This document shows, piece after piece, positions 12,239 through 52,277 of a stretch of 64,000 nucleotides of DNA. The translations under genes were made by a program, and so were the position numbers. This DNA is from an uncultured Gammaproteobacteria bacterium (lineage in GTDB: Bacteria > Patescibacteriota > Microgenomatia > 2-02-FULL-39-11): contig CAYGXQ010000001.1 of the NCBI GenBank assembly GCA_964354025.1, positions 70,567 through 134,566 of the forward strand. Reading direction: 5' to 3'. The number at the start of each line of letters is the position of its first letter. The first letter of the stretch is position 1. A model generated the notes under the pieces. That model searched no databases. It was not told the DNA's origin and was given only the letters and a program-made list of their open reading frames with translations.

Positions 12239-13008
12239 ACCAGGTGTGTATTAGCTTGACATATACGGGAAACTGATATAAATTGTAGTCATGCCGTACC
12301 GTAAGACCGTATTTGCTTGCGGAGAATATTACCACATTTACAACAGAGGCGTTGCTTATCAGCCGATTTATAAAAATAAAAGGGATTATGAAAGATTTTT
12401 ATTAACGCTTTCATATTACCGATTTCGGGACTGCCCGGTCAGACTTTCAAAATTATTGCTGACTCCTAAAGAAATCAGAGACGATATATTATCAGCCTTA
12501 GCTAAAGACAATAGTAAAAGAATAGAAATTCTTGCATATTGTCTTATGCCAAATCATTTTCATTTGCTTATTCAGCAAATCAAAGAAGGTGGAATATCAA
12601 AATATCTGCGTCAGTCAATAAATAGTTATGCAAAATACTTTAATACGAAATACAAAAGAGTAGGATCTCTTTTTCAGGATATGTTTAAGGCTGTCCGGAT
12701 AGAATCAGATGAGCAGCTTATACATGTTTCGCGATATATTCACCTTAATCCACTCGTTTCCTATTTGGTCAATCGAGAGGAACTACCCGAGTATCCTTGG
12801 TCATCACTGCAATCATATTTGGGAAAATCTGACTCTGATTTGGTAGTCGCGGAAACTGTTTTGGCCAATTTTAAAAACAAAAAGGAGTATATGCAATTTA
12901 TACTTGATCAGGAAGATTACGGAAAAAAGTTAGAACATATTAAACATCTTATGCTTGACGGAACATAATAATCCGTATGTGCAAACGTAATACACACCTG
13001 GTGTGTAT
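12233..13008 (+). mobile_element. HUH Y1 transposase gene (RAYT/IS200-like) flanked by inverted copies of a 19-bp palindrome
   Basis: atacacaccAGGtgtgtat at 12233-12251 and its reverse complement atacacaccTGGtgtgtat at 12990-13008 bracket the CDS. Confidence 0.7.
12291..12968 (+). CDS. REP-associated tyrosine transposase-like HUH endonuclease (Y1 transposase fold)
   Basis: HUH motif NHFHLLIQ and catalytic Tyr context SRYIHLNPL (compare RAYT YIHYNP). Own promoter TTGACA 12256-12261, ATAAAT about 12278-12283. Confidence 0.75.
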   Translation: MPYRKTVFACGEYYHIYNRGVAYQPIYKNKRDYERFLLTLSYYRFRDCPVRLSKLLLTPKEIRDDILSALAKDNSKRIEILAYCLMPNHFHLLIQQIKEGGISKYLRQSINSYAKYFNTKYKRVGSLFQDMFKAVRIESDEQLIHVSRYIHLNPLVSYLVNREELPEYPWSSLQSYLGKSDSDLVVAETVLANFKNKKEYMQFILDQEDYGKKLEHIKHLMLDGT

Positions 13009-14933: not shown

Positions 14934-15311
14934 TTAAGTGACCAGAAAAATAATTTTTAAACAGGCGATCAGGAACAGAAAAGAAACTACCGTCCCTGAA
15001 ATAACCAGAAGATAAGCGGCGGTTTTCCTAGTTTCAAAGATGCCGGCCGCCAGAAAAAAATTGAGGGAAAAAAAGATGATAGAAAAAAGAAACGGGATAA
15101 AAATGCCGTAAGGGGAAGTAAGCTGCTCTACGCCTCTGGGGAGAGAGTAAAAAAGCGGCAATTGCGGCGGGAGTTTGTTCCATTTGAAGATGATGGCGAT
15201 CAGAAAAACCGCGATAATCCCCAAAAAGATCCTGATTAAATTTTCCGCCAGTTTATCTTTTAATAATACTTTAATCTTTTCTTTCATATCAGCGGATGAG
15301 AAGCAGGTCAT
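14934..15311 (-). CDS. small membrane protein, hypothetical
   Basis: 125 aa, three hydrophobic helices, co-directional with the GT genes. Confidence 0.4.
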   Translation of the reverse strand: MTCFSSADMKEKIKVLLKDKLAENLIRIFLGIIAVFLIAIIFKWNKLPPQLPLFYSLPRGVEQLTSPYGIFIPFLFSIIFFSLNFFLAAGIFETRKTAAYLLVISGTVVSFLFLIACLKIIFLVT

Positions 15312-16587
15312 AAGTCGCGTTATCTTTCATAAGATAAGTTTTTGAAGGCGGAGGAGGAAAATCCGCCCTGGAAACAGCCGGAAAAACGACGTTGACGCCG
15401 ATATAATCAGGAACGGTGATGCTATTGGGATTATAGATAAATACTTTTTCCGGGAATTTATAATAAAAAGCGGATTCCAAAAAAGCAATCGGAGTTTGGG
15501 TATAAACAAAATCAGACGCTTCAGCATTTTTGTTTATTTCCGAAAAAGCGCTCTTGAAATCGGTTTTGCGGTGACCCGGGACCAGGGCGATATCGATAAC
15601 AATGACTAAAAGAAGAAAAGCAGCGGCGGTAAAATTTCTCAATAATTTGTTTTTAATGCTCCAGATGCCCAAAGAGATGCCGAAGATTTCAAAAACAGTG
15701 ATAAAAATAAAATAGCGGTTGACATAAATCGGCCGGCGAAGATATGAATAGCCCAAAACTCCAAATAAGGTAAAAAATATCGGCGTCAAAAATAACAAAG
15801 CCTGTTTCTTATTTTGCCGAAATCCTATCCAGAAGAAAACAAGGATGATGACTGAAAGCCAAAAAGTCAAAGGCCACCAGTTGCCCGGCGTGCCTTCGAA
15901 GTTGGTAAAAAGATTGCCCAAAACTGATTTAACCAGTTGCAGGTCAACCGGGAAGATCCAGGAATCTTTTGAACGTATAAATTGATTTATGAGGACCGGC
16001 AGCCAGGGAAGGAAGAAAAGCAGCGGTTTGGCGGTATTGATTATCAGCCTGCGGTGGTTTTGTTTGGTCAGAAAATAATAAATGATGAAAGATACGGGGA
16101 TAAGGATAAAAAATGACTGGGTGTAAAGTCCCAGGACAGTCGCAACTAAATACCCTTTCCACTCTTTTTTGTACCAGAAATATAAGGAACAAACGGTAAA
16201 CAGGGCATAAAAAGAATACATCCGGATTTCAAAAGCGTAATAGAGAAGCATCGGGTTGAAAAAAGTGAAAGCGGCAACATATAGGGCAAAGCGGCGGGAA
16301 AAGATTTTCTCCGCCAGAAGCGAGGCCACATAAACACTGATAACGAAAGCCAGAAAAGAAAGCAGTCTCAGTCCTACGTCTGATTTGCCGACGATTTGCA
16401 TCCACAAATGCAAAATCAGGTAATAAAAAGGAGGGTTAAAATCATGGGCGGTATTGCTGATGATCTTTATCAGATCCGGTTTAGCCATAAAATATGAAAA
16501 AGCCTCGTCCCGCCAAATTGACTGGATCAGATAAAAAAGCGGTGTTTGGTAGAAAATATAATTAACAATATTCATTTTGTATTCCAA
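15289..16587 (-). CDS. GT-C fold glycosyltransferase (ArnT/PMT family 39/83-like)
   Basis: Polytopic; early DEAFSY loop motif characteristic of ArnT/PMT-type GT-C enzymes. Confidence 0.6.
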   Translation of the reverse strand: MEYKMNIVNYIFYQTPLFYLIQSIWRDEAFSYFMAKPDLIKIISNTAHDFNPPFYYLILHLWMQIVGKSDVGLRLLSFLAFVISVYVASLLAEKIFSRRFALYVAAFTFFNPMLLYYAFEIRMYSFYALFTVCSLYFWYKKEWKGYLVATVLGLYTQSFFILIPVSFIIYYFLTKQNHRRLIINTAKPLLFFLPWLPVLINQFIRSKDSWIFPVDLQLVKSVLGNLFTNFEGTPGNWWPLTFWLSVIILVFFWIGFRQNKKQALLFLTPIFFTLFGVLGYSYLRRPIYVNRYFIFITVFEIFGISLGIWSIKNKLLRNFTAAAFLLLVIVIDIALVPGHRKTDFKSAFSEINKNAEASDFVYTQTPIAFLESAFYYKFPEKVFIYNPNSITVPDYIGVNVVFPAVSRADFPPPPSKTYLMKDNATYDLLLIR

Positions 16588-25090: not shown

Positions 25091-26230
25091 ATGGTTCCAG
25101 ATCAGATCAAAAAATTTCCCAAACCGCTCATTATCCTGCTGGCAATAATATTCTTTTTCATTGTTTGGCTTATCGCGATAAACATAAAACCGGCCGGTAA
25201 TCAGCCGGCAATTACCTCACGAATTACACCCTCTGCGTTTTTGACGGCGGTCCCGACTAAAACAACCGCGGACAAATCGGAAATTGCCCAAAAAGCCATC
25301 AATTGGCTTAACCTGCAAAAATCCCCGGACGGAGTCTATTATTTGAACCGGATAGTTTTACCAAACCAGCCAACATTACCGCCGACGGAGGATAAGCGGA
25401 TCGGAATAAATGTACTCTGGGGGAAATATAAATATTGGCAAAAAACAAAAGACCCAAAGATACCGGCTGAATTGTCAGAAGAGTTAAATACTCTGTCAGA
25501 TGAAAAACTGACCCGTCTTTTCCAGCCTGATTTTTGGAGTTGCCGGTTTTTATACGAAATCTGGACGGATAAGGATATCGGGCAGGAGATGAAAGACCAA
25601 GCGGACAGTTTATGTTCAAGAGCAAGTTTTGCCATCCCGTCCGCCGGTGAGTTGTCAACCTATCAGGAGAAAGAGACAAATTTACCATCTGTATTTTCCC
25701 CAAGTATAGACAAAATCACTTTGTCTGCCAAAGAAGAGATTGATTTGGGAAAGAAGTCTTACCAATATCCCGCCTTTGCTTCGGATTTTGCCGCCAAATA
25801 CTTATGGCATGGTAGAGTTAACGACCTGCAGACCGCCAAAGCACTTTTTAATCTGACAGTGGAGATTTACCAAAAACAATTGCGATCCGGAGTGATCCGC
25901 AATGAGTGTGTTCTGGGTATGGCTTCGCTTGATTTATACCGGCAGACAAATGACATGAAATATCTTATCTTTGCCGGAGATATTTTCAAAAATGATATTT
26001 TGGCCGGAAAGAGAAGTCTTTTCAGAAAAATTGCCTGTTATCTTTTCGTCGAAGAATTAGATACCGTCAGTCCGGAGATGAAATATGCCAATTTCGAAAA
26101 TAAACTGCTGGAAAATATCCTGTCGGAAAATTATGACCCCGTTTCCGGCGCGTTTTTCAGCGATATCGAAGATATCCGGCTTTATGAAACAAGAGATAAC
26201 GCTCTGATGCTGAAAATTTTATCTGAATAA
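25091..26230 (+). CDS. TM-anchored extracytoplasmic protein, cassette component A1 (paralog of 27192-28511)
   Basis: N-terminal TM. Motifs shared with the paralog: WLNLQKSPDGVYY/WLNMQKDEKGLYS, YWQKTKD/YWKKTKD, FWSCRFLYEIWTDK/FWHCKLFYEIWNDK, ECVLGMASLD/ECLLGIASLD. Confidence 0.6.
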   Translation: MVPDQIKKFPKPLIILLAIIFFFIVWLIAINIKPAGNQPAITSRITPSAFLTAVPTKTTADKSEIAQKAINWLNLQKSPDGVYYLNRIVLPNQPTLPPTEDKRIGINVLWGKYKYWQKTKDPKIPAELSEELNTLSDEKLTRLFQPDFWSCRFLYEIWTDKDIGQEMKDQADSLCSRASFAIPSAGELSTYQEKETNLPSVFSPSIDKITLSAKEEIDLGKKSYQYPAFASDFAAKYLWHGRVNDLQTAKALFNLTVEIYQKQLRSGVIRNECVLGMASLDLYRQTNDMKYLIFAGDIFKNDILAGKRSLFRKIACYLFVEELDTVSPEMKYANFENKLLENILSENYDPVSGAFFSDIEDIRLYETRDNALMLKILSE

Positions 26231-26234
26231 TATT

Positions 26235-27125
26235 ATGAAAAGAAATAATCTTTTTTGGGCTGTCAGCCTGTCTGTTATCCTGATCTTTTCTTTTACCCCC
26301 AAGAATGTTTTTGCCGACAACAGAACGGAGTGTGAAAGCTCGTCAAGCGATCCCAGCTGCGGACCGTGTGATTACAGCGATTCATGGGACGGCAAAAATC
26401 CGAACGGTGAATGTCACGCCGGCTGTTGGGACAATTCCGTTCCTTATGAATATCCGGGTCCCAAAAGAATGTGTACTTTTGAATGTACCTACTGCAATAA
26501 CGGCAATACCTGCGCTTATCCAATATCCGGTACTCCGCCGGTTCCCACCTCAATGCCCGGTACGCCTGTCCCTACCGTGGGTCCCTGTACTTGCGAAAAA
26601 GTAGACGTGGAAGGGATAATCGGCGCCGGCCAGACGATCACCCTGACCACTTATGCCCGTTCGCTTGACCCGGCCAAAAACAAAATTAACAGTATGATTT
26701 ATCATGTTGAGCAAAACGGTCAGGAGATTACCCATTCTGAACCAATCAGCGCCATTGAAGTAACCGGAGAACCCGGCCGGTATTACACCAACTGGACTTA
26801 TACCATTCCCTCAGACGGTATCGGTACGGTTGATTACCGGATTTGGGTAGATATCTTATGCGCTTATAAAACCGCCGCCAGCCAGAGTCAGACTGCGGTC
26901 CTGGGAATAGGGACAACCATCAAAATCGGCATCTTTGATCCCCTGGTCGGATTAATTCAATCAATTTTCACTCCCAAAAACGGCCAACCCGCCCCTTCTC
27001 TTGACACTAATCCGGATTCCTACACCATCCTCAGGCCTACCAGAGTGAATACCCTGCAATTGGGGACGTTTTATCCAACCCTTAAAAAAGGCTGTCATGA
27101 AATCAGTTTTTCCATCCATTTCTGA
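26235..27125 (+). CDS. secreted Cys-rich protein, cassette component B1 (paralog of 28504-30858)
   Basis: Signal peptide; N-terminal domain of about 60 aa with 10 Cys; C-terminal domain SMIYHV...YTIPS...GTVDY shared with B2. Confidence 0.6.
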   Translation: MKRNNLFWAVSLSVILIFSFTPKNVFADNRTECESSSSDPSCGPCDYSDSWDGKNPNGECHAGCWDNSVPYEYPGPKRMCTFECTYCNNGNTCAYPISGTPPVPTSMPGTPVPTVGPCTCEKVDVEGIIGAGQTITLTTYARSLDPAKNKINSMIYHVEQNGQEITHSEPISAIEVTGEPGRYYTNWTYTIPSDGIGTVDYRIWVDILCAYKTAASQSQTAVLGIGTTIKIGIFDPLVGLIQSIFTPKNGQPAPSLDTNPDSYTILRPTRVNTLQLGTFYPTLKKGCHEISFSIHF

Positions 27126-27191
27126 TTCTTGACTAAAATATCGGGAAACGTTAACCTTATTTTAAGGTAAACTTTTATCGGCATTTTTCTT

Positions 27192-28511
27192 ATGGATAAA
27201 AAGAAGATTTTGATTACCGCAGTTATAGTATTAATGGCAATTATCGCCATCGTTGCTATTTTTCTCTCCAAAAAAAATCAGCCGGGACAACCAGTCAGCT
27301 GCAATCTGCAAAATTGTCCTTCCGGCTGCTGCGCGGATGACAAATGCCAGACCCAGGGATCAATTTTTGCCGGCTACTTATGTTTGGGTGCCAATAACTG
27401 GCAGACGCCTGGTCGGCAAGTGGTGACTGGTGCGCCAAAAGAAGTCGCGGCAGAAGTGAAAAAGAATGCCGAAACGGATAAAATCTCTCCCAATCCTGCT
27501 TCGCAAAGAATAGAAATGGCCAAAAAAACGCTTGACTGGTTAAATATGCAGAAAGATGAAAAGGGCTTGTATTCCCTTTACCAAATCGTCCGTGCGAACG
27601 GTGAAGTGGTACCTTATATTACCGACAGCCGGGAAGTGATTGACGTCGTCCTGGCAAGATATGCATACTGGAAAAAGACAAAAGACACAAAGACACTGGA
27701 TCTGTTAAAACAGGATCTGGATGTACTAGGTGATGAGAAAAAACTGCCGCAGTTGATGCCTGAATTTTGGCATTGCAAGCTATTTTACGAAATCTGGAAT
27801 GATAAGCTTATGCCTGGGGATTTGAAAGATAAAGCCAAAGCCAGTTGCGCAAGAAGTATGACCTCCGGTTATCCTGATGTGGACCTTAAATCGATTTTAT
27901 CGGATACAATAACGGTGACTCCTTTTCCGGAAAAATCAATTCAGGAACTTGAGTCAGCCTTAAATAAACCGGAGAAGAATATTACTTTATCACCGCAGGA
28001 GGAGGAAGAACTCCAGCAGAAATATCCGAAATATGCCGCTTACGTTTCCGATTTCCTTAATAAATACCAATGGGAAAAAAAGAACCAGGATCTGGAAGCG
28101 GCCAAAACGTTTTTCAGCTACGCTTTAGACGCCTACAAGAGAGCGGAAGAGGCGGCAGTAATACCGCAAAAAGAATGCCTGTTGGGGATTGCTTCGCTTG
28201 ATTTTTTCAAAACGACTGCCGATGACAAATACCGCTCGTTTGCGCAAAAATTATGGGAAAAAATCTCAATCTCACCAAAAGGATCGCTTTTCTCACAAGC
28301 TACCTGCGCTATTTTTACCAATGAGATAAATACAATCACCCCTGATAAAAAATACGGTGATTTCCTGAAAAACTTGACTGATGAGATTATAAAAAATAAC
28401 CATGAAATAAATTCCGGCGCTTTCTTTTATAAAAGCAATGGAAGTATTATCAAAGAGATCAGGGATAATTGTCTCTTGGTGAAGGTTTTATCGGATTCTG
28501 ATAGTGAGTAG
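27192..28511 (+). CDS. TM-anchored extracytoplasmic protein, cassette component A2, with extra Cys-rich N-terminal segment
   Basis: Paralogous to A1 (see motifs there) plus CNLQNCPSGCCADDKCQTQG near the membrane anchor. Confidence 0.6.
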   Translation: MDKKKILITAVIVLMAIIAIVAIFLSKKNQPGQPVSCNLQNCPSGCCADDKCQTQGSIFAGYLCLGANNWQTPGRQVVTGAPKEVAAEVKKNAETDKISPNPASQRIEMAKKTLDWLNMQKDEKGLYSLYQIVRANGEVVPYITDSREVIDVVLARYAYWKKTKDTKTLDLLKQDLDVLGDEKKLPQLMPEFWHCKLFYEIWNDKLMPGDLKDKAKASCARSMTSGYPDVDLKSILSDTITVTPFPEKSIQELESALNKPEKNITLSPQEEEELQQKYPKYAAYVSDFLNKYQWEKKNQDLEAAKTFFSYALDAYKRAEEAAVIPQKECLLGIASLDFFKTTADDKYRSFAQKLWEKISISPKGSLFSQATCAIFTNEINTITPDKKYGDFLKNLTDEIIKNNHEINSGAFFYKSNGSIIKEIRDNCLLVKVLSDSDSE

Positions 28512-30858
28512 TATGAAAAGATTTTTTTATACAATATTTCTTGCCATTATCCTTTTGGGGATTTTTTATTCCTTTAAAAATAGCGCATATGCTGTAGATT
28601 GTTCGATTCTCAGCTCAAATCCTGCTTGCGGTAAATGTGTTATAGATCCATGGTCTGGGAGTGGTGCTTGTATGAAACAGTGTAATCCTGGTGCGATTAC
28701 GTGTTCCGGTAAGGAAGATCTGAATTCCTGCTGGTGGAGATGTAATGCAGCTGAAGGGGGATGTGATAATCCCTACCAATGCTGTTATCCGCCGAGTCCC
28801 ACTCCGACTAATTCACCACCCTCCTGTAACAGCCTGACTGTCCAGCCGGTTACCGTGATGCCTGGAGAGTCGATTACCCTAAAAGCAAACGTCGGCGAAT
28901 TGAACGGCTCGGTTACGAAAGTGGATTTTTATTACGGATTAGTATCGGAAATAGACGGAGGGGCGGCGGTCAATCCTCCAGGCGGTAACTGGCATCCTTT
29001 AGGCAGTGTGTCATCCAGTCAACCGACAATCCCCTTTGCTCCTTTGGTCACGCCGAATGTTAAAACAGGTAAAAGTTGTGACCAGATTTGTCAGGGATAT
29101 CAGGGCAGGTCCTGTTTGTCAGTTGGTACTGATACCGGGGGAACAAACGGGAGCGTGACGAAATTTAATAGTACTGGGAGTGAAGACGGCAGTTGTGATT
29201 CACAAACGGGCGGATGGGCAAGAGAGAAATGCAATGTAGCGATGAATGCTCATGGACAAATGCCTTGCGACTGGACAAATTGCCGCTGTTCGGATTGGCC
29301 GACTTTAACTACATTTACGGATGTTTCTTGGACCGGAACTTTTCCGGGAACAGGAGGAGCCTATTATTTCATCGCCAATGTCTTTGACGCTCAGGGCCTG
29401 TTTTGTTCCGGCAATCCTAAAAAACCGGCTGACGTAAAAGGATGTTCAGCCTGTATGTTGCAAACAACCGTGGTGACGCCATCACCGACTCCCAGTGAGT
29501 CTCCGACGCCTTCAGCAACACCTACATCTACCCCTACTTCTACTCCTACCCCGACACCTCTTGGATGCGGCAATCCCTGCAGCCCGGACAATAACGAATG
29601 TCCCGAAGAATGTCCATTTTGTCCGGTAGATAATTCCTTTTGCGTCGGTCCAAGTTCCACGCCCACTCCCACCCAAGTTCCTTGTAACGGCCCCTGTACT
29701 AACAGCAATGAATGTGATATAAACTGTCCTCTTTGTTCAACTGATCATACCTGTAGGGTACCTTGTGGTGATCTGTGCACCAACAGCAACGAATGCGATC
29801 TGTCCTGTCCGATTTGTACGGCTGATAACAAATGTTTGGCAGCCAGTCCGACTCCCACTAAAGTCCCCTGTACCCAACCATGTACCAATAGCCTAGAATG
29901 CGATATCAACTGTCCTCTTTGTTCAACTGATCATACCTGTAGGGTACCTTGTGGTGATCTGTGCACCAACAGCAACGAATGCGATCTGTCCTGTCCGATT
30001 TGTACGGCTGATAACAAATGTTTGGCAGCCAGTCCGACACCGACAGCTACACCGATTCCTCCGACAGCTACACCGACAGCGACTGTCACTCCGACACCGG
30101 AGCCATACTGCCTTTGCGATAGTATGGAATATACAGGATCTCCGGTACCGGGTGGGACAATGAGTTTCACTACCTGGGGTAGGATACCGGATTATGCCCA
30201 CAATAATTCAGGCATCCAGAGTATGATTTATCGGGTTTGGAACGGAAGACCGGAATCGCAATCTGTGCCTCCGGATGCAGCCGGACCCGTCACTGTACCA
30301 GCCCAAGGTCCGGTAACCGTCGGTGCTGATTACCGGTATTCGACGACTTGGAATTGGCAAATTCCGAGTACCGTGCCGACTTCCGGTTATGTCGATTATT
30401 ATTTCAACGCGGAAATCAAGTGTGTCAGACCAAGATCGACAGCGGATAGCGGCAGTAATCTGGTTCAGGCAAACACGGCGGTGCTGGGTACAACCGAGGA
30501 AAAAAGTCCCGGCTTTTTTGCCTCCATTCTTCGTTTCTTCGGTTCTCTTTTAGGAATTTCTCCATCTGTGGTTACTCCTTCACCGCTAGTACCTACTCCT
30601 ACCTCCTCTGCCCGGCTTGTTCCGCTGGCCGCCGAAGCACTTTCGCCTACACCTACCCAGGTCATGCTTCCTCCTTCTCCCACAATGGGAATGGGAGGGT
30701 ATTGCGCCAGTACTGTTCTTGCACCATCAGGAGTCCATAGCGATCAACTAGGCACTTTTACTCCCAATTGCGCCTGTCCTACCCCAGCAATTATCAAAAC
30801 ATGTACCTGGACAGTCTTAAGAATATATTACGGTGATGATTGTGTGAAGACACCGTAA
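28504..30858 (+). CDS. large secreted Cys-rich modular surface protein, cassette component B2
   Basis: Signal peptide; N-terminal Cys-rich domain homologous to B1; Pro/Thr linkers; five CxxxxECxxxCPxC modules; C-terminal domain homologous to B1. Confidence 0.6.
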   Translation: MSSMKRFFYTIFLAIILLGIFYSFKNSAYAVDCSILSSNPACGKCVIDPWSGSGACMKQCNPGAITCSGKEDLNSCWWRCNAAEGGCDNPYQCCYPPSPTPTNSPPSCNSLTVQPVTVMPGESITLKANVGELNGSVTKVDFYYGLVSEIDGGAAVNPPGGNWHPLGSVSSSQPTIPFAPLVTPNVKTGKSCDQICQGYQGRSCLSVGTDTGGTNGSVTKFNSTGSEDGSCDSQTGGWAREKCNVAMNAHGQMPCDWTNCRCSDWPTLTTFTDVSWTGTFPGTGGAYYFIANVFDAQGLFCSGNPKKPADVKGCSACMLQTTVVTPSPTPSESPTPSATPTSTPTSTPTPTPLGCGNPCSPDNNECPEECPFCPVDNSFCVGPSSTPTPTQVPCNGPCTNSNECDINCPLCSTDHTCRVPCGDLCTNSNECDLSCPICTADNKCLAASPTPTKVPCTQPCTNSLECDINCPLCSTDHTCRVPCGDLCTNSNECDLSCPICTADNKCLAASPTPTATPIPPTATPTATVTPTPEPYCLCDSMEYTGSPVPGGTMSFTTWGRIPDYAHNNSGIQSMIYRVWNGRPESQSVPPDAAGPVTVPAQGPVTVGADYRYSTTWNWQIPSTVPTSGYVDYYFNAEIKCVRPRSTADSGSNLVQANTAVLGTTEEKSPGFFASILRFFGSLLGISPSVVTPSPLVPTPTSSARLVPLAAEALSPTPTQVMLPPSPTMGMGGYCASTVLAPSGVHSDQLGTFTPNCACPTPAIIKTCTWTVLRIYYGDDCVKTP
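29677..30048 (+). repeat. tandem direct duplication of a 186-bp unit (62 aa, two Cys modules) inside B2
   Basis: 29722-29852 is 100% identical to 29908-30038 (131 bp); the upstream parts of the units are about 80% identical. Confidence 0.85.
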
Positions 30859-30913: not shown

Positions 30914-31228
30914 TTATTTATCCCGGATTTTGAGAGAAGCGAAACTGGTGATTCCTCCAAGAGTCAAGATGCCGCTGATTCCCAAAAGCAATAATGAGTT
31001 TTCCATATTTCCGGATACCGGCGGTTGGGGAGTGGCTGTGGGGCGGGGAGTCGAAGTGGGTGGTGGAGTATTGGTTGGTGCCGTAACGGGTGTACTGGTG
31101 GGGGCACAAGTGATACCGGGAATGGTCGTATCGCAGATGGGGCCGAAGGTATCCTGGGCAAAGACACTCCTTTTGGGAAGCAAAATGACTAAGACAAGAA
31201 TAAAATAGGATAATAATCGGGAATTCAT
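30914..31228 (-). CDS. small secreted Pro/Thr-rich peptide with C-terminal TM and basic tail (cell-surface anchor-like)
   Basis: Signal peptide MNSRLLSYFILVLVILLPKRSVFAQD, CDTTIPGITC, PT-rich linker, LLLLGISGILTLGGITSFASL then KIRDK. Confidence 0.45.
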   Translation of the reverse strand: MNSRLLSYFILVLVILLPKRSVFAQDTFGPICDTTIPGITCAPTSTPVTAPTNTPPPTSTPRPTATPQPPVSGNMENSLLLLGISGILTLGGITSFASLKIRDK

Positions 31229-31301
31229 CCTAAATCCATTGTGATGGATTATTTTTTGGGTGTCAAGTGGAAAGTTTTATGTTAAGATAAAAATTATAGA
31301 T

Positions 31302-31757
31302 ATGAAAAAAAAGCTGATCATCTTAATCGGTCTTATTATTTTAATTTTTATAGCAAAAATGACCGGTTTTAACGGGAAATATTTTTTTAAGTCTTTAGAA
31401 TTTTTACAGGATAATAGAAGTTACTCCGATTCCGGTATTTCCGCTTCAGAACCGACAAAGGTAACAGAAATAAACATCACAAAATGGGCAATCTCGCCGG
31501 AGTCATTGGCCAAATGTCTGGCTGAACGGCGTTTTAAGATGTACGGGACTGATACCTGCAGTTCGTGTAAGATGCAGAAAGAATTTTTCGGCGACAGTTT
31601 TCAGCTGATAAATTATGTGAACTGCGAAACGGAAAAAACTTTGTGTGACGCCAAAGGTCTGCATGCTTTTCCCGTTTGGGAAGACGACACCGGTAAGCAA
31701 TATAAAGGAGCGATAGAATTATCAGTTTTGGCCAATTTAACCGGTTGCGACAAATAA
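31302..31757 (+). CDS. membrane-anchored thioredoxin-fold protein with CxxC (CSSC)
   Basis: N-terminal TM, YGTDTCSSCKMQKEFFG, conserved distal Cys; immediately upstream of the ccdA-like gene. Confidence 0.5.
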   Translation: MKKKLIILIGLIILIFIAKMTGFNGKYFFKSLEFLQDNRSYSDSGISASEPTKVTEINITKWAISPESLAKCLAERRFKMYGTDTCSSCKMQKEFFGDSFQLINYVNCETEKTLCDAKGLHAFPVWEDDTGKQYKGAIELSVLANLTGCDK

Positions 31758-31760
31758 ATT

Positions 31761-32582
31761 ATGATTACCTCCGGTAATTTAATCGGCGCTTTTTTGGCAG
31801 GATTGACGTCCTTTTTTGCCCCGTGTCTGCTGCCGCTTTTTCCCTCTTACTTTTCCGCCGTCTCCGGCTTTACTTTTGCCCAGTTGTACGGACTGGATTT
31901 CGGCAAAATCAGGTTACGGGTCTTTGTCTCCAGTCTTTTTTTCTCGGCCGGATTTGCGATCGTTTTCACGGCTTTGGGAGCCACCGGTTCCCTTGTCGGA
32001 CAACTTCTGGAGAAGTACCTGCCGTATCTTTTGAGGCTAAGCGGGATATTTTTGATACTATTGGGTCTTGTACAACTGGGAATAATCAAAATTCCCTCTT
32101 TTGAATTTGACTATGCTTGGAAAATGCAGAAAAAAATGGCCGGTCTCGGGTTCTTAACCTCTTTGGTAACCGGGATTGCCGCCGCGCTGTCTTGGATTCC
32201 CTGTATCGGGCCGCTTTTGTCTCCGATCCTTTTGCTTTCTGCAGAAAGCGAGACGGTGTTTTCCGGCAGTTTACTTTTATTTATTTTTTCCCTGGGACTG
32301 ACGGTACCGTTTTTGGCCGGCGGATTATTTTTCCCGGCCGTAGTCAATCTTCTTCAGGGTCATAGGCAGCTGTTTCACCGGATTTCACAGCTGGCGGGAA
32401 TATTTATTATCATCCTCGGGATATTATTACTCGCAGATAAATATCAGTTATTGATAAAATTATTTGAAGGGATAGTTTTATCTGTCATTGCGAGTCCCGA
32501 TGTCACATCGGGACGCGGCAATCTCGGATGGGATTGCTTCGCTTCGCTCACAATGACATATAAACATAAATTCATTATATAA
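31761..32582 (+). CDS. ccdA: CcdA/DsbD-family transmembrane thiol-disulfide electron transporter
   Basis: Paired Cys motifs FAPCLLPL and WIPCIGPLL in TM helices. The last ~30 codons (VIASPDVTSGRGNLGWDCFASLTMT...) are read through a family-1 repeat and are probably not native. Confidence 0.75.
   Translation: MITSGNLIGAFLAGLTSFFAPCLLPLFPSYFSAVSGFTFAQLYGLDFGKIRLRVFVSSLFFSAGFAIVFTALGATGSLVGQLLEKYLPYLLRLSGIFLILLGLVQLGIIKIPSFEFDYAWKMQKKMAGLGFLTSLVTGIAAALSWIPCIGPLLSPILLLSAESETVFSGSLLLFIFSLGLTVPFLAGGLFFPAVVNLLQGHRQLFHRISQLAGIFIIILGILLLADKYQLLIKLFEGIVLSVIASPDVTSGRGNLGWDCFASLTMTYKHKFII
32483..32557. repeat. family-1 structured repeat with near-perfect 12-bp TIRs
   Basis: tgtcattgcgag ... ctcacaatgaca. 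Central module is the reverse complement of the central module of the 18991 copy. Confidence 0.7.
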
Positions 32583-43578: not shown

Positions 43579-45336
43579 TTAGTGGCCTGGGGCCGCTGGG
43601 CGAACCGGCATGGGTTGCGTTGGTCCGGGAACAGTGGGGGTGACGGCGGCGCTCGCCGTGACGCCCGTTGCCTGGATCGTGAAGGGCCCGTACAGATTGT
43701 TTTCTTGCTGGCCCAAAATTTCATGCCTTTCGAGCTCGCCATTATACCAGTTGACCCGGTCGTCTGTATCGACCCGATAGTAGCCAATGCCGGAAAGGTT
43801 CGGATCAACGTTCGAGTAGTAGACCCAATAGTTGCAACCCTGTGACTCACTGGCCACAGTGCTGCATGTGATAGTCTCACCCGGTTTGAGTGAGACTGTG
43901 GTGCCGTTTGGCCACCAGTTGCTAAAAGCCACACCCCGACCAGTCCAGCGGGACCCATCCCAACCAGGGGAAAGATCTTGCCAGAAATCTCCGGGGCCGG
44001 GGACGCGAGGCGGGTTGACATACCCGTCAATCCACCATGAGCCAGTTGTCGGCGCCGTTCCGATGTTAGCAATAATGACCATTGCGTAATTGTTTCTAAT
44101 GGTGCCGGATACCACAACTAGGTCTGGGGCGTAAAGGAAATCGCGTTGTATGACTGGTAGGTACGTTCGGCAGGCGTCCATGCGGACTTGAGCCGCATCC
44201 ATAGCGCTCACGTTTTGTCCGTTTGCCCGGCCGGTGCTCGTGACGGTGTTAGTGAAACTTGCCGTTACGTTGGTCGTGCAGATATAGCCGTTGCTTGCGC
44301 CGACTACTAGCGTCCCGATGGAGCGACTGCAGGTTCCGACCGTGCCCGTCACCGTCACGTTAGACAGATCCAGGTCCCCTGTGTTAGTGACTGCGATAGT
44401 GAAAGTTGCGGATCGGTTGTAGCAGACGGTTTTGTTTTCCGGTTCGATGGTGATGGCGATTGCTGCGGTTTTGATCGTGAACATCGCCGTGACAACCTTG
44501 TTTGCCGTCATCATGACCGTCGTCGGGTTGGCCGTACCCGTGATTGCGCCGGTCCAATTGACGAACGTCGAGGTTATACTCGGCGACGCTGTCAACGTGA
44601 CGACCGTACCAGCCTGGTAGCTGGTCTGGTCCGGATTCTTCGTCACCGTGCCCTGGCCGACTACGTTGGTCGTCAGTTGGTAATTGCAGATGACCGAAAT
44701 CATCTCTTGGACGAGCTGGTCGAGCTCATCTGGCGACGAGGCATTTCCCCAGCTTCCATCGCCAGCCTCGGCGATTTCAGCCAGATAGCCTTCACGGGTC
44801 GAGTCGAGATCCACACCAATGGCGAAGACCCTGAGCCCCGCGAGTTGTGGATCGGCCTGTGCAACCTCGATCGCGGAAACTAGTTGATTGGTTTGAGTAA
44901 TGGTGATTTCCGCATCCGTTACCAACAGCACAACCGGGTCTTCTGCTCCGAGGAGCTGGTTCTTGGCCATAACGAAGGCAGGCACGATCTCTGTGCCGCC
45001 GTTGGCCGTTAGCGCGTTGACCGCGGCGATGACGTCCGTATAGACAGGAGTCAAGGCCAGGTCTACCCGAGGCGTGTCAGCGAAGCTAACCACCCCTTGG
45101 CGGGACCCGGGATTGCTGACTTGCGGTGTTACATGGGCGACCGCACCCTTCAACGCGTCCAGCCGGGTGCCGGAGCCGAAAGCGGTCCCCATCGAGCCCG
45201 ATCGGTCGAGTTGGTACATCAAGTTGACCGTCCGCGAGCAACCCAGCGTCATCGCTTGGTTCGTGATGAAACCAAGCGTCAATAAGGTGGCCAAAAAAAC
45301 CAGGCCCAAAACTTGCGCGAGTCTTCCGCGTTTCAT
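43579..45336 (-). CDS. secreted von Willebrand factor A (VWA) domain protein with C-terminal beta-rich repeats, high-GC
   Basis: Signal peptide; MIDAS DRSGSMG; T...D pattern; Thr/Val/Asn-rich Ig-like repeats; GC about 57%. Confidence 0.65.
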   Translation of the reverse strand: MKRGRLAQVLGLVFLATLLTLGFITNQAMTLGCSRTVNLMYQLDRSGSMGTAFGSGTRLDALKGAVAHVTPQVSNPGSRQGVVSFADTPRVDLALTPVYTDVIAAVNALTANGGTEIVPAFVMAKNQLLGAEDPVVLLVTDAEITITQTNQLVSAIEVAQADPQLAGLRVFAIGVDLDSTREGYLAEIAEAGDGSWGNASSPDELDQLVQEMISVICNYQLTTNVVGQGTVTKNPDQTSYQAGTVVTLTASPSITSTFVNWTGAITGTANPTTVMMTANKVVTAMFTIKTAAIAITIEPENKTVCYNRSATFTIAVTNTGDLDLSNVTVTGTVGTCSRSIGTLVVGASNGYICTTNVTASFTNTVTSTGRANGQNVSAMDAAQVRMDACRTYLPVIQRDFLYAPDLVVVSGTIRNNYAMVIIANIGTAPTTGSWWIDGYVNPPRVPGPGDFWQDLSPGWDGSRWTGRGVAFSNWWPNGTTVSLKPGETITCSTVASESQGCNYWVYYSNVDPNLSGIGYYRVDTDDRVNWYNGELERHEILGQQENNLYGPFTIQATGVTASAAVTPTVPGPTQPMPVRPAAPGH

Positions 45337-46261: not shown

Positions 46262-47539
46262 ATGGATACGAACCAACAGATCCAAAATCAGTACTTCAAT
46301 TTTTATCGGGATAATCTGGAAAAGACAGCCCAAGCGATTCAAAAAGGCAAAGTGTTAATTTTTGTGGGGATGAATTCGATCGGCAAAACTTTGCTGATCA
46401 ACCAGATAACTTCTTCCAGATTCAAGCAGGAATACCTGTCAAATCAAAAAGTACAGACAGTATTTTTGGAATATAAAGACAAGAATCCGCCCACCCCGGC
46501 TCAACTTTATAAATATTGGCTTACCGAAACAGCTAAGATTCGGGGATATAATTTGCCTTTGAATGAAGAATTTAATGACTATTCTTTTTACTATCACCTG
46601 ACGGAAATGACCAAGAATTTAGGGGAAGAGAAACTGGTCTATATTCTCCAAGACACCCAAAAATTGCTTGACCAGGGAGAAGCTTTTTTTCGCAGTCTGA
46701 TCTACCTCCACCGCTTCACTTACGGAAAAGTTTCCTATCTGGTCTTTTCCGAACCGCAAATCCTGGATTGCAAAAACACCTGGGTACAAAGATTTGTGCA
46801 AGACCTTACCAACCATAAATTTATTTTTCTTAAATTATTGGATAAAGCCACGACAATTACTGACATTCAAAGGGAAGAACAGTTCCTGAAAGCTGATCTT
46901 AAACACAGATGGCCTTTGGTGATCAAGTATTCAGGCGGGCTGCATGGAGTAATCGGCGCCCTTTGTTATTTTTTGAAAAAATTTCCGGAAGTGAAAGATA
47001 TCAGACAACTGCGGAAAATTGTCGAAGATGACAAAATGTGTGAGTATTGGTTTAAGGATATTTTTGACAGTCTTCCGCTTGAGTCACTTCGAATTTTAAA
47101 AGAAGTAGTCATGCATAAAGATAACTGGAAAAAATACAACAGGGAGATTTTTGGGGAATACCTGGTCAATTTAGGATTTTTGAAAAATGACGGCACTTTC
47201 CGTCATCCACTGATGCTTTTGTCCCTCAAAAAATACGTGATAGGAGAAAGAAAAAACATCCAGGAACTTACATTGGTTAAAAATGCATTTTTTCTAAACG
47301 GTGCTAAAATAAAATTAACCAAAAGAGAGTTTGCGGTTTTACAGGTTTTGCATAAAAATAAGGGTAAGACGGTGACGACTGACCAGTTAGCCGAAGCTTT
47401 ATGGAAAGACAATCCGGAGGCATTCTCTCTTTGGGCGATCGCGCAGACAGTCCGGCGCTTGAGAAAAAAACTGGCTTTTTATTTTATCCCCCCTCAAACC
47501 ATTAAAAGCATCAGGGGAGAAGGGTATATGATGAGCTAA
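46262..47539 (+). CDS. P-loop ATPase with C-terminal OmpR/PhoB-type winged-helix DNA-binding domain
   Basis: Walker A VGMNSIGKT, Walker B-like VYILQD, C-terminal LTKREFAVLQVLHKNKGKTVTTDQLAEALW...VRRLRKKL...IKSIRGEGY (trans_reg_C pattern). Confidence 0.6.
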   Translation: MDTNQQIQNQYFNFYRDNLEKTAQAIQKGKVLIFVGMNSIGKTLLINQITSSRFKQEYLSNQKVQTVFLEYKDKNPPTPAQLYKYWLTETAKIRGYNLPLNEEFNDYSFYYHLTEMTKNLGEEKLVYILQDTQKLLDQGEAFFRSLIYLHRFTYGKVSYLVFSEPQILDCKNTWVQRFVQDLTNHKFIFLKLLDKATTITDIQREEQFLKADLKHRWPLVIKYSGGLHGVIGALCYFLKKFPEVKDIRQLRKIVEDDKMCEYWFKDIFDSLPLESLRILKEVVMHKDNWKKYNREIFGEYLVNLGFLKNDGTFRHPLMLLSLKKYVIGERKNIQELTLVKNAFFLNGAKIKLTKREFAVLQVLHKNKGKTVTTDQLAEALWKDNPEAFSLWAIAQTVRRLRKKLAFYFIPPQTIKSIRGEGYMMS

Positions 47540-47540
47540 T

Positions 47541-49856
47541 ATGATAGGAGAAACACCAACTGTTTTACCATCTATGTGGGCAAGAATAAGACAAAGACAG
47601 GCAGAAGCAAATGAATTGCAGGGGGATGCCAGAGTAGGAGCGCAAATAACTATTGATAGCTTAACGAGACGTATGCCCAATTTGCCGGAAGAAAAAAAAC
47701 AACTATGTATAGATTATCATCGTGTAGCCGAACCGGTTCTTACTGATTTGCGATGGGCGCCACGTATTACGACGAGAGATGATCTATTCAATACTTTTTT
47801 AAGAAGACGTATCGATGCCTGTCTTGATAATGGGGAAGATCGGGTATATATAGAGATGGCTTTTGGACAACTTAAGTCTTATATAGAACAGACACGCAAT
47901 GAAGTCGTTGATTTCCTTGAGGGATTAGTTCATAAAATGACTGCTACTAAAAATGCGGAAATGGTAGTGATAAATAATGAGGAGGTAAGTTTCAGCGAAA
48001 CCTTTTTAAGAGATTATTTGAGAGATTTTTTTAACAAGTATCCTTTGCAATGGAATGATAGTCAGGTTGATTTAAAGGATAGAATTTCGGCAGTCATGTA
48101 CGCCATCGATGATAATACCAAAGCCAAAGAGGGTGAACGTTATCTCCCGATTATTAAAGTAGGACAAAGGTTTGAGTTTGATATCCCAGAGGAATTCCAA
48201 TATGTTTTGGCCTTAAAAATTCTTGAACAAACTGATTTGACGGATGAAAGAACATCTCCACTATTATATACAAAATATATTAACTGGGATTTCTCGTCAG
48301 AAGCAGTCTTGGCAAAATTGGATGCGGTAAATTGTTTCAAGAATGGGAGATATAAGGATTTCCGTTTTTTATTATCAGCGATAGGAGAAATTATTTATGA
48401 TGATAGGAGTTATAGAGCGACGTTGATCGATTTTCTGACCGGAGTGACAGAAAGGATTGGAGGGAGAGATCCAGTCGAGATGCGCAAAGGATTTGCTTTT
48501 GCCAGAACAATTTTAGATGATTTTGCCAAGTATTACGTTAAGGACAGTAGGGAATCTATAGAATACAGGTTTTTGGAACAGACAAGAGAAGCATTGAACC
48601 AGCGCGAAAGAGAATATTTTTATCCAGACAGAAAACCGGTTGTTCCGGCTGATGTTATGGAGCAAGCGGTTTCGGCTATGGAAAGGAGAGGACCGTCTGC
48701 GATGAATGAAGCCATCTGGTTGGGAATGGTGCCGGAAGGATCAGTGGGAGCGCTTTTCCCGCCGGAGATGAGAGAGCAGATAGAACTAATAATCCAATAC
48801 GCTTTGAAACGGCGGAAAGCGGAAGCAGCAATCATTCCTGGGACTGCTGATGTTTATGGAGCAGATAGTGAGGAAGCGATTTGGATAATGAAACTAAAAC
48901 AGGCTTTTATTGGAGCAATGTTCGCTAAGGATGACGGATATGATATTCATCTACGAAGAGACAATGAGCCGACTTTGCAGGTAACAGAAGGTCCGACTGA
49001 TGCCTCCGAACGGGCGCTATTGATGATTCTGAATGTTATTAACGAAATAGTTAAGATAAAAGCTACAGATAACAGACTAGCTTTAGGTGTTTCTGAAATG
49101 ATGACTGCTGTTTATTATGGTGACGTGGCGAGTAGAAGTCTTTGTTGGGACAAAGAGAGAAAAAGATATGTCTGGGAAAATCCGAAATTTCTCGAACAGT
49201 ATGAGAAAGCAGAACGGGCAATTGCCGGTATTTTTGCCTGGTATCCGCTTTACGCTGGCGAAGTAACTGGATTTCCCGAATCAGGCGCTTTATGGGCTGA
49301 GGCTAACCGTGACTATGGCTATTTGATCTTAGTGGCGAATGATATGGAGGATATCTTGATAAGAGGAAAATATAAGAAACATGAGATGGGTAATGATATC
49401 GGTCAGAAGCCCTCTATTTACCAATGGCTTTTCATGCATCTTGAATTACCGGAAGATGATTCTTTATCTGCTTCCCTGGTTGCTGATCAAGAAATTGTCC
49501 GGAAAGCTTATGATGATATCGGCCGCAAAAGACACGCCGGAGAAAAACTAAACGATGTTGATTATCAGCAAATTGCTCAAGCTTGTGAAGCTCTAACGAA
49601 ATATGCACCAAGAATTATTCCCCAGATGCAAATCATGCTAGAACCGTTTTACACCAGAGCAAGAGAGTCTTTAGCTGAAGCATTTAAAAAATTGCCTTCG
49701 ATGGATAGACGGAATACCACTCAGCAGATAATTTTTGAAAATATGATTGATGGAGTCTGGCAGAAGATCTGCGGATTTTCTGGAAGCGGGGAAGAAGCAG
49801 CTATTGAACAATTATTTCAAGTAAGAGAAAAAGTAAAAGAGGAAGTTCTAGAGTAA
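47541..49856 (+). CDS. large soluble protein of unknown function, translationally coupled to the ATPase-wHTH gene
   Basis: 771 aa uninterrupted ORF starting 1 nt after the upstream TAA; no TM or recognisable motif. Confidence 0.5.
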   Translation: MIGETPTVLPSMWARIRQRQAEANELQGDARVGAQITIDSLTRRMPNLPEEKKQLCIDYHRVAEPVLTDLRWAPRITTRDDLFNTFLRRRIDACLDNGEDRVYIEMAFGQLKSYIEQTRNEVVDFLEGLVHKMTATKNAEMVVINNEEVSFSETFLRDYLRDFFNKYPLQWNDSQVDLKDRISAVMYAIDDNTKAKEGERYLPIIKVGQRFEFDIPEEFQYVLALKILEQTDLTDERTSPLLYTKYINWDFSSEAVLAKLDAVNCFKNGRYKDFRFLLSAIGEIIYDDRSYRATLIDFLTGVTERIGGRDPVEMRKGFAFARTILDDFAKYYVKDSRESIEYRFLEQTREALNQREREYFYPDRKPVVPADVMEQAVSAMERRGPSAMNEAIWLGMVPEGSVGALFPPEMREQIELIIQYALKRRKAEAAIIPGTADVYGADSEEAIWIMKLKQAFIGAMFAKDDGYDIHLRRDNEPTLQVTEGPTDASERALLMILNVINEIVKIKATDNRLALGVSEMMTAVYYGDVASRSLCWDKERKRYVWENPKFLEQYEKAERAIAGIFAWYPLYAGEVTGFPESGALWAEANRDYGYLILVANDMEDILIRGKYKKHEMGNDIGQKPSIYQWLFMHLELPEDDSLSASLVADQEIVRKAYDDIGRKRHAGEKLNDVDYQQIAQACEALTKYAPRIIPQMQIMLEPFYTRARESLAEAFKKLPSMDRRNTTQQIIFENMIDGVWQKICGFSGSGEEAAIEQLFQVREKVKEEVLE

Positions 49857-51476: not shown

Positions 51477-51665
51477 TTATTCCTCCCGTTTTTGTAGCTG
51501 TTTGATTATGTCATTATCAAAAGTGGGTGTCAACGGGACAACCTGTTTGAGTTGTATTTCAGTGACGGAAGTAGTTTTGCCGGCACCAAAGACGCTGAAA
51601 AAAATCCAGGCGATGACCGTCAGTAACATGATCAGGGCAATGATGGTAAATTCTCTACGGTTCAT
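51477..51665 (-). CDS. small single-TM protein, hypothetical (pilus operon)
   Basis: 62 aa, one TM, co-directional and abutting pilO. Confidence 0.35.
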   Translation of the reverse strand: MNRREFTIIALIMLLTVIAWIFFSVFGAGKTTSVTEIQLKQVVPLTPTFDNDIIKQLQKREE

Positions 51666-52275
51666 AGTAAGCGGTAGCCTTCAGGGCAATCCGCAAATTT
51701 TTATTATCAGTTCCGCCCTCACGGGTCATTTCCAATGAATTAATAGTGATTATCCTTTTCCAGTTGATAAGGTGTTGTACAAAAAAAGACATTGCCTGAT
51801 AATTGCCGGTTCCGATCAGGCTGAAACTGTATTTCTGGAGTTTGCCGGAAGGCGTGAGTTTAGAAATCGGGACATTATCAATCTGCAGCTGGTTGATGGA
51901 AAGTTCGGAAACCTGGGCAAAATTCTCAATCGCCTGTGCCAGCTTATGAAAAAGGGCGTTACCGGGAATCGCCAAATTAATCAAGGGGAGACTGTCTCTT
52001 ATCTGCTCGTATTCAGTTTGGGCCCGGATAATACCGCTGATTTTGTTTTCATATTCCAGGTCGATTTTTTTCAAATCGGAAACGCTTTTTATCAGTTTGA
52101 CCGCGGTTATGATCGTCGGGCGGATGGCGAAAAAGCCAAAAAATGAAAGCGTAAAAAGCGAGAGGGAAATAGTGAAATAAGAAACAGTCTTCTTGTTTTT
52201 GGTGATTTGCGGCAATTTTTTGTAAGCTTGTGTAAAAAGTGAACGGTTGATATTGAATAGCGGCATATTTATCAA
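51655..52275 (-). CDS. pilO: type IV pilus assembly protein PilO-like
   Basis: Single TM, coiled coil, C-terminal domain; placed directly after pilN. Confidence 0.5.
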   Translation of the reverse strand: MINMPLFNINRSLFTQAYKKLPQITKNKKTVSYFTISLSLFTLSFFGFFAIRPTIITAVKLIKSVSDLKKIDLEYENKISGIIRAQTEYEQIRDSLPLINLAIPGNALFHKLAQAIENFAQVSELSINQLQIDNVPISKLTPSGKLQKYSFSLIGTGNYQAMSFFVQHLINWKRIITINSLEMTREGGTDNKNLRIALKATAYYEP

Positions 52276-52277
52276 AA

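Follow-up and report, generated by a model that had tools for sequence, protein, structure and literature searches.

What is encoded by four hypothetical genes that stand in tandem on a contig of an uncultured Microgenomates bacterium, and do they belong together? The organism is a member of the candidate phyla radiation (CPR, or Patescibacteria), which makes up a large share of bacterial diversity. The DnaK encoded in the window falls into a cluster (≥90% identity) with a protein named as Microgenomates, and the closest homolog of A bears that label too. To our knowledge, every CPR bacterium in culture lives on other microbes to which it is attached, and little is understood of how hosts are recognized and bound. 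The genes form an array, A1-B1-A2-B2, at positions 25091-30858 on the plus strand of the window, the 64,000-nucleotide stretch of contig CAYGXQ010000001.1 analyzed here. A sequence-only reading had proposed a tandem two-gene cassette that pairs a membrane-anchored protein (A) with a secreted Cys-rich one (B), and all four open reading frames (ORFs) proved to be present:

25091-26230, plus strand: A1, an ORF of 379 aa for a predicted type II membrane protein with an extracytoplasmic six-hairpin barrel
26235-27125, plus strand: B1, an ORF of 296 aa (13 Cys) for a secreted Cys-rich protein
27192-28511, plus strand: A2, an ORF of 439 aa, paralog of A1 and the more derived copy
28504-30858, plus strand: B2, an ORF of 784 aa (61 Cys) for an expanded secreted Cys-rich protein

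B1 starts 4 nt past the A1 stop, 66 nt separate B1 from A2, and A2 overlaps B2 by 8 nt; this abutment or overlap of A and B is consistent with translational coupling. Promoter and terminator scans yielded nothing informative. From the evidence that follows, we conclude that the A-B pair is a conserved two-gene unit, probably of the cell surface, of Microgenomates-group CPR bacteria and that the window holds two anciently diverged copies of it.

The pairing of A with B is not peculiar to this contig. Related loci (given L numbers below) were gathered by exact-protein look-ups and a metagenome scan, and near-identical loci were collapsed, which left 26 distinct A genes. A partner was scored as B-type if it was the next ORF on the same strand, contained at least 3.5% Cys, and carried an N-terminal hydrophobic segment and Pro/Thr-rich linkers. 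Such an ORF directly followed A in 23 of the 26 cases, compared to a background of 3 among 248 other ORFs in the loci. On these counts we rejected chance adjacency, and A and B homologs do co-occur outside the window. Where measured, the spacing from A to B ranged from a 35-nt overlap to a 13-nt gap, and the partners were 225 to 1244 aa long. Exceptions were found in L005 and in L007, where a transposase-like gene follows A. In L007 (4165-4692 and 7307-7852), the 3' end of A is disrupted where the gene for a 171-175-aa protein sits, which accounts for one of the A genes without B. That protein looks related to the product of an IS200-like Y1 transposase gene in the window (12291-12968, plus strand).

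A and B were also duplicated jointly, both in the window and L033 and in L035, which argues for cognate pairs. Locus L033, from an independent sample, carries a helicase gene, an A1-like gene, a B1-like gene, a conserved spacer, and the beginning of an A2-like gene. A1 and the A1-like protein of this locus share 70% identity, and the A2-like ORF begins MDKKRILII, compared to MDKKKILIT in A2. Since the array was seen in this second sample, it is not an assembly artifact. Meanwhile, L035 contains an independent array in the order A' (405 aa), B' (376 aa), A (516 aa), and B'' (~495 aa). As proposed, A1 and A2 are paralogs; they are 33% identical over 378 aa, end to end (E = 9e-71), and all of the shared motifs quoted for them are present. 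The same distance separates either protein from other members of the subfamily (30-39% identity), so the duplication of the pair must be ancient. The suggestion of evolution by duplication therefore stands in that the tandem copies are real and seen in other assemblies, although the pair duplication is not a recent one. In the public gene call for L035 (5401-6876, plus strand), the B-type ORF of ~495 aa is broken up: one fragment has 150 aa, and a spurious product of 104 aa is read from another frame. Long Pro/Thr linkers appear to mislead the gene caller, and B-type proteins may be systematically under-called.

Protein A is a member of a new, uncurated family inside the six-hairpin superfamily. 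Neither A1 nor A2 had a significant match in Pfam or NCBIfam (for A1, no Pfam family at E ≤ 1), and a viral fold library gave no match at E ≤ 0.001. A word-indexed homolog search from A1 found three relatives besides A1 itself, and searches of this type recovered 4 to 6 relatives at most, even with an 80-sequence profile. An exhaustive profile search returned 302 representatives (50% clustering), of which 132 were at E ≤ 1e-30 and nearly all were ~370-520 aa long. With about 300 representatives at this level of clustering, the narrow lineage specificity assumed earlier had to be given up. A scan of genome contigs yielded no locus beyond one already known.

We modeled A1 with AlphaFold2 from an 80-sequence alignment. 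The model had a predicted local distance difference test score (pLDDT) of 90.8 and a predicted template modeling score (pTM) of 0.83, and it replaced an earlier model on 5 sequences (pLDDT of 62). It contains a transmembrane (TM) helix at residues 11-31, a disordered stalk at about residues 32-60, and an all-helical barrel at residues 62-378. The corresponding features, together with one that is particular to A2, are as follows:

25121-25183, plus strand: A1 TM helix, residues 11-31, with K7, K8, and K11 before the helix (AlphaFold2 model and sequence)
25274-26224, plus strand: A1 predicted (alpha/alpha)6 barrel, residues 62-378, pLDDT mostly >90, with putative disulfides C151-C175 and C273-C316
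27297-27383, plus strand: A2 juxtamembrane Cys-rich insert with 6 Cys, residues 37-64; not in A1, present in P0008 (L009)

The Lys residues ahead of the A1 helix point to an N-in topology. Across 156 members of the A family, cysteines tended to be present or absent in pairs (A1 numbering). At 89/95, both residues were found in 126 members, only one in 5, and neither in 25; the corresponding counts were 145, 1, and 10 at 151/175 and 94, 17, and 45 at 273/316. This paired presence and absence indicates three structural disulfides and thus a domain outside the cytoplasm. The lineage of A1 and A2 keeps two of the three pairs, the 89/95 pair having been lost lineage-wide. Taken together, the TM helix with its preceding Lys residues and the disulfide-like co-variation of the cysteines suggest that A is extracytoplasmic. 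Conserved columns in the family are Y83, W110, Q145, W149, S231, D/E232, D281, Y291, D349, F355, and N370. A1 holds all of the best-conserved residues except D131, where it has a conservative Glu, and the 89/95 Cys pair. Because A2 carries substitutions at three near-invariant positions (W110L, Q145M, and D349E, in A1 numbering), we regard it as the more derived copy. The number of invariant polar and aromatic residues suggests that the family has a specific ligand site.

Does this family belong to known enzymes? A QxxxDGxY motif had been taken as a weak hint of an alpha/alpha-toroid enzyme. At the level of the fold the hint was correct, as the AlphaFold2 model is a six-hairpin barrel and the A-family profile matched chains of glycoside hydrolase family 76 (GH76; E = 2.8e-8), across only about one and a half hairpins. 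A is thus predicted to share the (alpha/alpha)6 barrel of GH76, and its barrel comes closest to these alpha-1,6-mannanases. The catalytic Asp-Asp of that family (D136/D137 in 6shd/6y8f) aligns to R270/N271 in A1 and Q326/K327 in A2, in a register given by the sequence profile, not by structural superposition. Among the 156 A-family members, just 26% and 37% have an acidic residue in these columns. The Pfam model Glyco_hydro_76 matched neither A1 (E ≤ 1) nor any of 80 members, and no match was found in NCBIfam. With the dyad replaced and unconserved and the curated model unmatched, we rejected A as a bona fide GH76 enzyme, and no curated model placed A1 or A2 in another known enzyme family.

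Compared to GH76 proteins (Aman6, BT2949, and Salegentibacter GH76A) and to the fungal Dfg5/Dcw1, A has a sequence identity of 9-14%. It has a TM anchor, whereas those proteins have a signal peptide, a lipoprotein anchor, or a glycosylphosphatidylinositol (GPI) anchor. Its putative disulfides, two or three in number, and its obligate pairing with a gene for a Cys-rich protein also set it apart. To GH88/GH105 unsaturated glycuronyl hydrolases and AGE-family epimerases/isomerases, A shows partial hairpin similarity below curated cut-offs. Sub-threshold Pfam matches to GH88 or GH127 were found in ~15% of A-family members; GH88 was matched by 12 of 80 members (best E = 3e-6), not by A1 or A2. A reading of A as a thioester (TED) protein was rejected.

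B1 and B2 are kin as well. Their C-terminal domains are 29% identical over 219 aa (E = 2e-12); N-terminal similarity is weak (E = 5e-4), with seven cysteines at identical positions (33, 42, 45, 60, 80, 87, and 93). Neither protein had a significant match in Pfam or NCBIfam. Both start with typical Sec signal peptides (ending VFA|D in B1 and AYA|V in B2), which suggests that they too are extracytoplasmic. Their parts are as follows:

26316-26522, plus strand: B1 N-terminal Cys-knot domain, residues 28-96, ending CTFECTYCNNGNTC; common to B-type partners
26583-26870, plus strand: variable C-terminal domain of B1 (SMIY...YTIPSDG...VDY), with homologs in B2 (residues 536-650) and in B' and B'' of L035
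28594-28785, plus strand: N-terminal Cys-knot domain of B2 (residues 31-94), its Cys positions matching those of B1
29566-30021, plus strand: five 6-Cys modules of B2, 24-26 residues each, C-x3-C-x5/6-C-x3-C-x2-C-x5/6-C, with Pro/Thr linkers between them
29657-30028, plus strand: B2 internal tandem duplication, 2 x 186 nt at 90% identity, which duplicates a pair of Cys modules
30109-30453, plus strand: variable C-terminal domain of B2 (residues 536-650), a homolog of the one in B1

The Pro/Thr linkers and Cys modules that the sequence-only reading had described in B2 were borne out, with exactly five 6-Cys modules counted (residues 355-380, 394-417, 421-444, 456-479, and 483-506). These modules look like iterations of the N-terminal Cys knot. 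The 186-nt repeat was missed by Tandem Repeats Finder and found by another repeat search; its 90% identity suggests a recent event and a B2 that is still expanding. The C-terminal domain of B1 and B2 is probably a beta-sandwich. We found no sortase signal in B1, which ends ...KGCHEISFSIHF, or in B2, which ends ...YYGDDCVKTP, and neither has a TM segment.

In the other loci, B partners were linked through the N-terminal Cys domain (BLAST E values of 1e-4 to 7e-12), which typically ends in a C-x3-C-x2-C-x-N-x2-T-C knot. The C-terminal parts fell into at least three unrelated classes. L035 again has the domain of B1/B2 type, with its ...LQLGTF.P...KGC..... tail (E = 1e-12). No significant sequence similarity linked the partner in L001 to B1/B2, and a comparison of the B1/B2 C-terminal domain with that of L030/L032 gave no more than a suggestion of homology (hhalign P = 2e-4, probability of 46%). 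Profiles of the two other C-terminal classes had no informative relatives in PDB or Pfam beyond a generic transthyretin/CarboxypepD_reg-like sandwich. The Pro/Thr linkers of B are probably O-glycosylated. L034, L001, L003, and the window (15289-16587) have genes for PMT-family O-mannosyltransferases close to the module.

The gene neighborhoods of relatives connect the module with type IV pili. A was found in type IV pilus operons at seven loci, six of which contain the whole A-B pair. In L001, L030, L032, and L034, the genes lie beside S20, on one strand and tightly spaced, in the order PilN, PilO, a small TM protein of 64-110 aa, an fn3/TM protein of ~440 aa (without a counterpart in L001), A, and B. 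The same PilN-PilO order is seen up to A in L031, where the contig ends. In L006 and L013, the pair lies among prepilin (N_methyl) genes, with an A only ~23% identical to A1. There, a conserved TM protein of 256/267 aa comes after a giant B (1041 and 1244 aa), and PilM comes next in L006. The link is recurrent across three deep branches of the A family and is probably ancestral, though not universal. Locus L034 (GCA_035529355.1, P0025) is labeled "Candidatus Bathyarchaeia archaeon"; its contig has the synteny of a CPR bacterium (LepA, MurJ, S20, PilN, and PilO) and is probably mis-binned.

The window retains a pilus operon (50034-52832, minus strand) that is homologous to the one ending in A-B in L030, L032, and L034:

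52278-52832, minus strand: PilN
51655-52275, minus strand: PilO
51477-51665, minus strand: small 62-aa TM ORF, probably unannotated
50034-51476, minus strand: 480-aa fn3/Big_13 TM protein

The window also shares the flanking genes of L030 (GH39, MurJ, S20, LytR_cpsA_psr, TIM, UvrD, and FemAB). Since the operon and these flanking genes are retained and the array lies ~19 kb away, a local rearrangement appears to have moved the A-B array. Between the fn3 gene and LytR, where A-B is found in the relatives, the window has other genes (46262-49856, plus strand, and 43579-45336, minus strand). These encode a 425-aa STAND-like NTPase with Trans_reg_C, a 771-aa protein without a Pfam match, and a 585-aa secreted protein with VWA and InlB-B repeats, along with several small genes.

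How might the two proteins work together? The reading we favor, at a probability of roughly 45%, is that of a cognate two-component surface module, in which a membrane-tethered barrel (A) is matched with a variable, adhesin-like protein (B), ancestrally beside a type IV pilus. On this reading, the N-terminal TM helix and flexible ~30-residue stalk of A would carry a disulfide-braced extracytoplasmic barrel that recognizes carbohydrate. B would be exported by Sec and rigidified by disulfides, with a Cys-knot N-domain, Pro/Thr linkers, and fast-evolving C-terminal domains. A would capture and/or mature its cognate B, plausibly via linkers bearing O-glycans or via the Cys-knot N-domain, and would hold it at the cell surface, B itself being without a TM segment or sortase signal. 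B may then mediate adhesion or host recognition as a variable protein whose ancestral place was next to the pilus. The physical or enzymatic coupling of A and B, the glycan ligand, and the adhesin role are points that we infer. The sequence-only reading had suggested a surface system, perhaps for adhesion or host interaction; the pilus-operon contexts in relatives support that suggestion, and its adhesion part is putative.

Several observations count against this reading. Pilus genes adjoin the module in only 7 of ~24 loci, and five of the seven share inherited synteny. In the window itself, A-B lies ~19 kb from pilNO on the other strand, behind genes for RmuC and an AddA-like helicase-nuclease, and neighbors elsewhere are heterogeneous (DprA, a ComM-like protein, a class A penicillin-binding protein, sortase, VanW, and housekeeping genes). 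The A genes of L005 and L007 have no B-type partner, and an fn3 protein ("X") stands upstream of A instead. B contains no recognizable adhesin domain, the glycosylation of its linkers is putative, and the conserved polar residues of A could equally fit an enzyme that acts on a substrate other than B.

An enzymatic role is the basis of the main alternative, which we consider unlikely. In it, A is an active, noncanonical glycoside hydrolase or transglycosylase that remodels the cell's own wall or glycopolymer (e.g., for the passage of pili or large surface proteins) or that transfers B covalently onto wall glycan, with B as its substrate or passenger. For the fungal GH76 proteins Dfg5/Dcw1, a transfer of GPI proteins onto wall glycan has been proposed. 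The replaced and mostly nonacidic Asp-Asp positions speak against such an enzyme, as does the fact that no GH family model reaches threshold. Furthermore, general wall remodeling leaves the one-to-one adjacency and co-duplication with a hypervariable partner unexplained. Another possibility, which we hold to be quite improbable, is that A and B belong to the pilus machine itself, as structural components specific to CPR bacteria. B would then be a tip or priming protein like PilY1, PilC, or ComZ, while A, together with the small and fn3 proteins, would form an envelope-side assembly platform, and the copies in the window would be relocated pilus genes. In favor of this idea, seven loci, which represent three deep branches of the A family, have the pair either downstream of PilN-PilO or in the midst of minor pilins. 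A second point in its favor is that the largest B proteins are encoded at exactly the PilY1-like position in minor-pilin operons, ahead of the conserved TM protein. In contrast, most loci, the window included, have no adjacent pilus genes, and the two tandem A-B pairs in the window, L033, and L035 would be unusual for core machine parts. The signal of B is of the Sec type rather than a prepilin signal, and no similarity to PilY1, PilC, or ComZ was detected. Tip adhesins of the PilY1/PilC type have a C-terminal beta-propeller and/or an N-terminal vWA domain, and neither B1, B2, nor the giant B proteins matched either domain in Pfam, NCBIfam, or PDB. B further differs from PilY1, PilC, ComZ, and PilX2 in its build of Cys knot and Pro/Thr linkers, its Sec signal, and the constant presence of an A partner. 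By operon position, the B proteins of L006 and L013 nevertheless correspond to PilY1, PilC, ComZ, and the PilX2 of Saccharibacteria (PMC11623550), and they could be pilus-associated adhesins.

Two further readings have very little to recommend them. Tightly spaced two-gene cassettes with variable copy number and a hypervariable secreted member recall a secreted toxin or bacteriocin (B) with a membrane-bound immunity or export partner (A), and very weak YxzE-like bacteriocin matches were seen on N-termini. We nonetheless regard this as very improbable: immunity proteins are rarely conserved, enzyme-like ectodomains of 400 aa, B is without a toxin domain, and its linkers, probable beta-sandwiches, and Cys knots resemble those of a surface protein. 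A toxin is also a poor fit to the pilus-operon context. Most doubtful of all is a role for A as a LanC-like cyclase or other thiol-modifying alpha-toroid enzyme that puts thioether or similar crosslinks into the Cys/Ser/Thr-rich B. LanC-like cyclases have a Cys-Cys-His zinc site on their inner helices. The conserved cysteines of A co-vary as three disulfide-like pairs, and no His was found among A-family columns conserved at 60% or more, so this reading is scarcely credible.

The favored two-component surface module can be taken one step further, into a version that we think improbable. A-B, together with the small TM and fn3 proteins, would be a CPR-specific extension of the type IV pilus, with B as a hypervariable host-recognition protein on or beside the pilus. 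A would represent a new family of carbohydrate-active proteins whose active site is not that of GH76, and it would load or mature B or open wall glycans at the site of contact. The host range of these episymbionts would in that case be encoded in the number of copies and in the diversity of B.

Parts of this picture have precedents. Large extracellular Cys-rich proteins and type IV pili are both mentioned in the CPR literature (PMC4736985; bioRxiv 10.1101/335083; PMC11623550; PMC7143001), and type IV pili are the one machine implicated in CPR host contact (PMC11623550; bioRxiv 10.1101/335083). In Peregrinibacteria genomes, large, secreted, very Cys-rich, and strain-variable proteins have been described, with a proposed role in attachment, though they were treated as no more than a curiosity (PMC4736985). 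Those proteins are a compositional class without a defined partner, whereas B is defined by its N-terminal Cys-knot domain and its six-hairpin partner gene. In the literature searched, we found no account of the A six-hairpin family, of the A-B pairing, or of GH76 combined with type IV pili. What is new here is an uncurated six-hairpin family that probably originated in a pilus operon and whose genes are tied to those of one defined class of surface proteins with a Cys knot. Four hypothetical ORFs have thereby become a defined, testable module, and an unannotated family of ~300 sequence clusters of membrane-anchored, disulfide-braced, GH76-like barrels has come to light. For CAZy-style curation, A is a candidate new six-hairpin family with a predicted noncanonical active site. 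Experimental targets include the A ectodomain, which should be expressible, the conserved residues of its putative pocket, which can be mutated, and cognate A-B pairs. The module may be part of how tiny CPR bacteria attach to other cells.

Other genes near the module may bear on its proteins. Directly downstream of B2 in the window lies the following pair:

31260-32582, plus strand: 165-aa membrane-anchored CSSC protein (no Pfam match) and a DsbD_TM/CcdA protein

In L021, a VKOR-DHODH fusion is encoded upstream of the module, and a 68%-identical homolog is found upstream in L023. The CSSC/CcdA and VKOR genes could represent dedicated systems for disulfide formation or isomerization in B. Convergent with B2 is a 104-aa ORF (window 30914-31228, minus strand). 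Its product has a signal peptide and is rich in Pro/Thr throughout its body; at the C-terminal end, PPVSGN precedes a TM segment and a basic tail. Similar PPVSG, MPATG, or LPVAG plus TM tails are found on the fn3 proteins of L030 (5589-6929), L032 (4685-5992), and L034 (5618-6946), and a 311-aa protein of L034 (9330-10265) has a tail of the same kind. Such tails may be variant LPXTG-like sortase signals in CPR bacteria. In L018, a gene for a sortase is found close to the module.

Genes with a link to DNA uptake recur on the far side of B. A convergent dprA gene stands right after B in L015 (4243-5328), L021 (8644-9741), and L023 (8537-9637), each time on the minus strand, and a gene for a ComM-like AAA+ protein occupies the same convergent position in L014 (9566-11089). 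The DprA, ComM, RmuC, and helicase-nuclease neighbors may mark a DNA-uptake neighborhood or simply inherited synteny. We set this theme aside as a lead only, because the genes are on the opposite strand or inherited by synteny and other loci show wall or housekeeping neighbors.

Upstream of A, a secreted protein is encoded in L005 (190-1728), L006 (3149-4387), and L007 (4803-5945); it bears fn3 in L005 and L007 and is Thr-rich in L006. These three proteins share an unannotated C-terminal domain of ~250 aa (LEGVAPxRLxFT...). Another upstream partner is Peptidase_C39_2-like and occurs in L012 (84-1076), L013 (4092-5879), and L016 (6-1343), identified by Pfam in L013 and by homology in L012 and L016. 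In the Roizmanbacteria-type loci L023 (5366-5707) and L024 (5375-5731), the gene for a TM protein of ~113 aa overlaps the start of A, and this protein bears dockerin-like repeats (GDANCDNFIT...DFNKDSLVNYDDY). Proteins with cohesin domains are encoded a few genes from the module in L001 (3835-4593), L014 (3036-3677), and L035 (9414-9992). An Rfam scan of the window returned zero RNA families.

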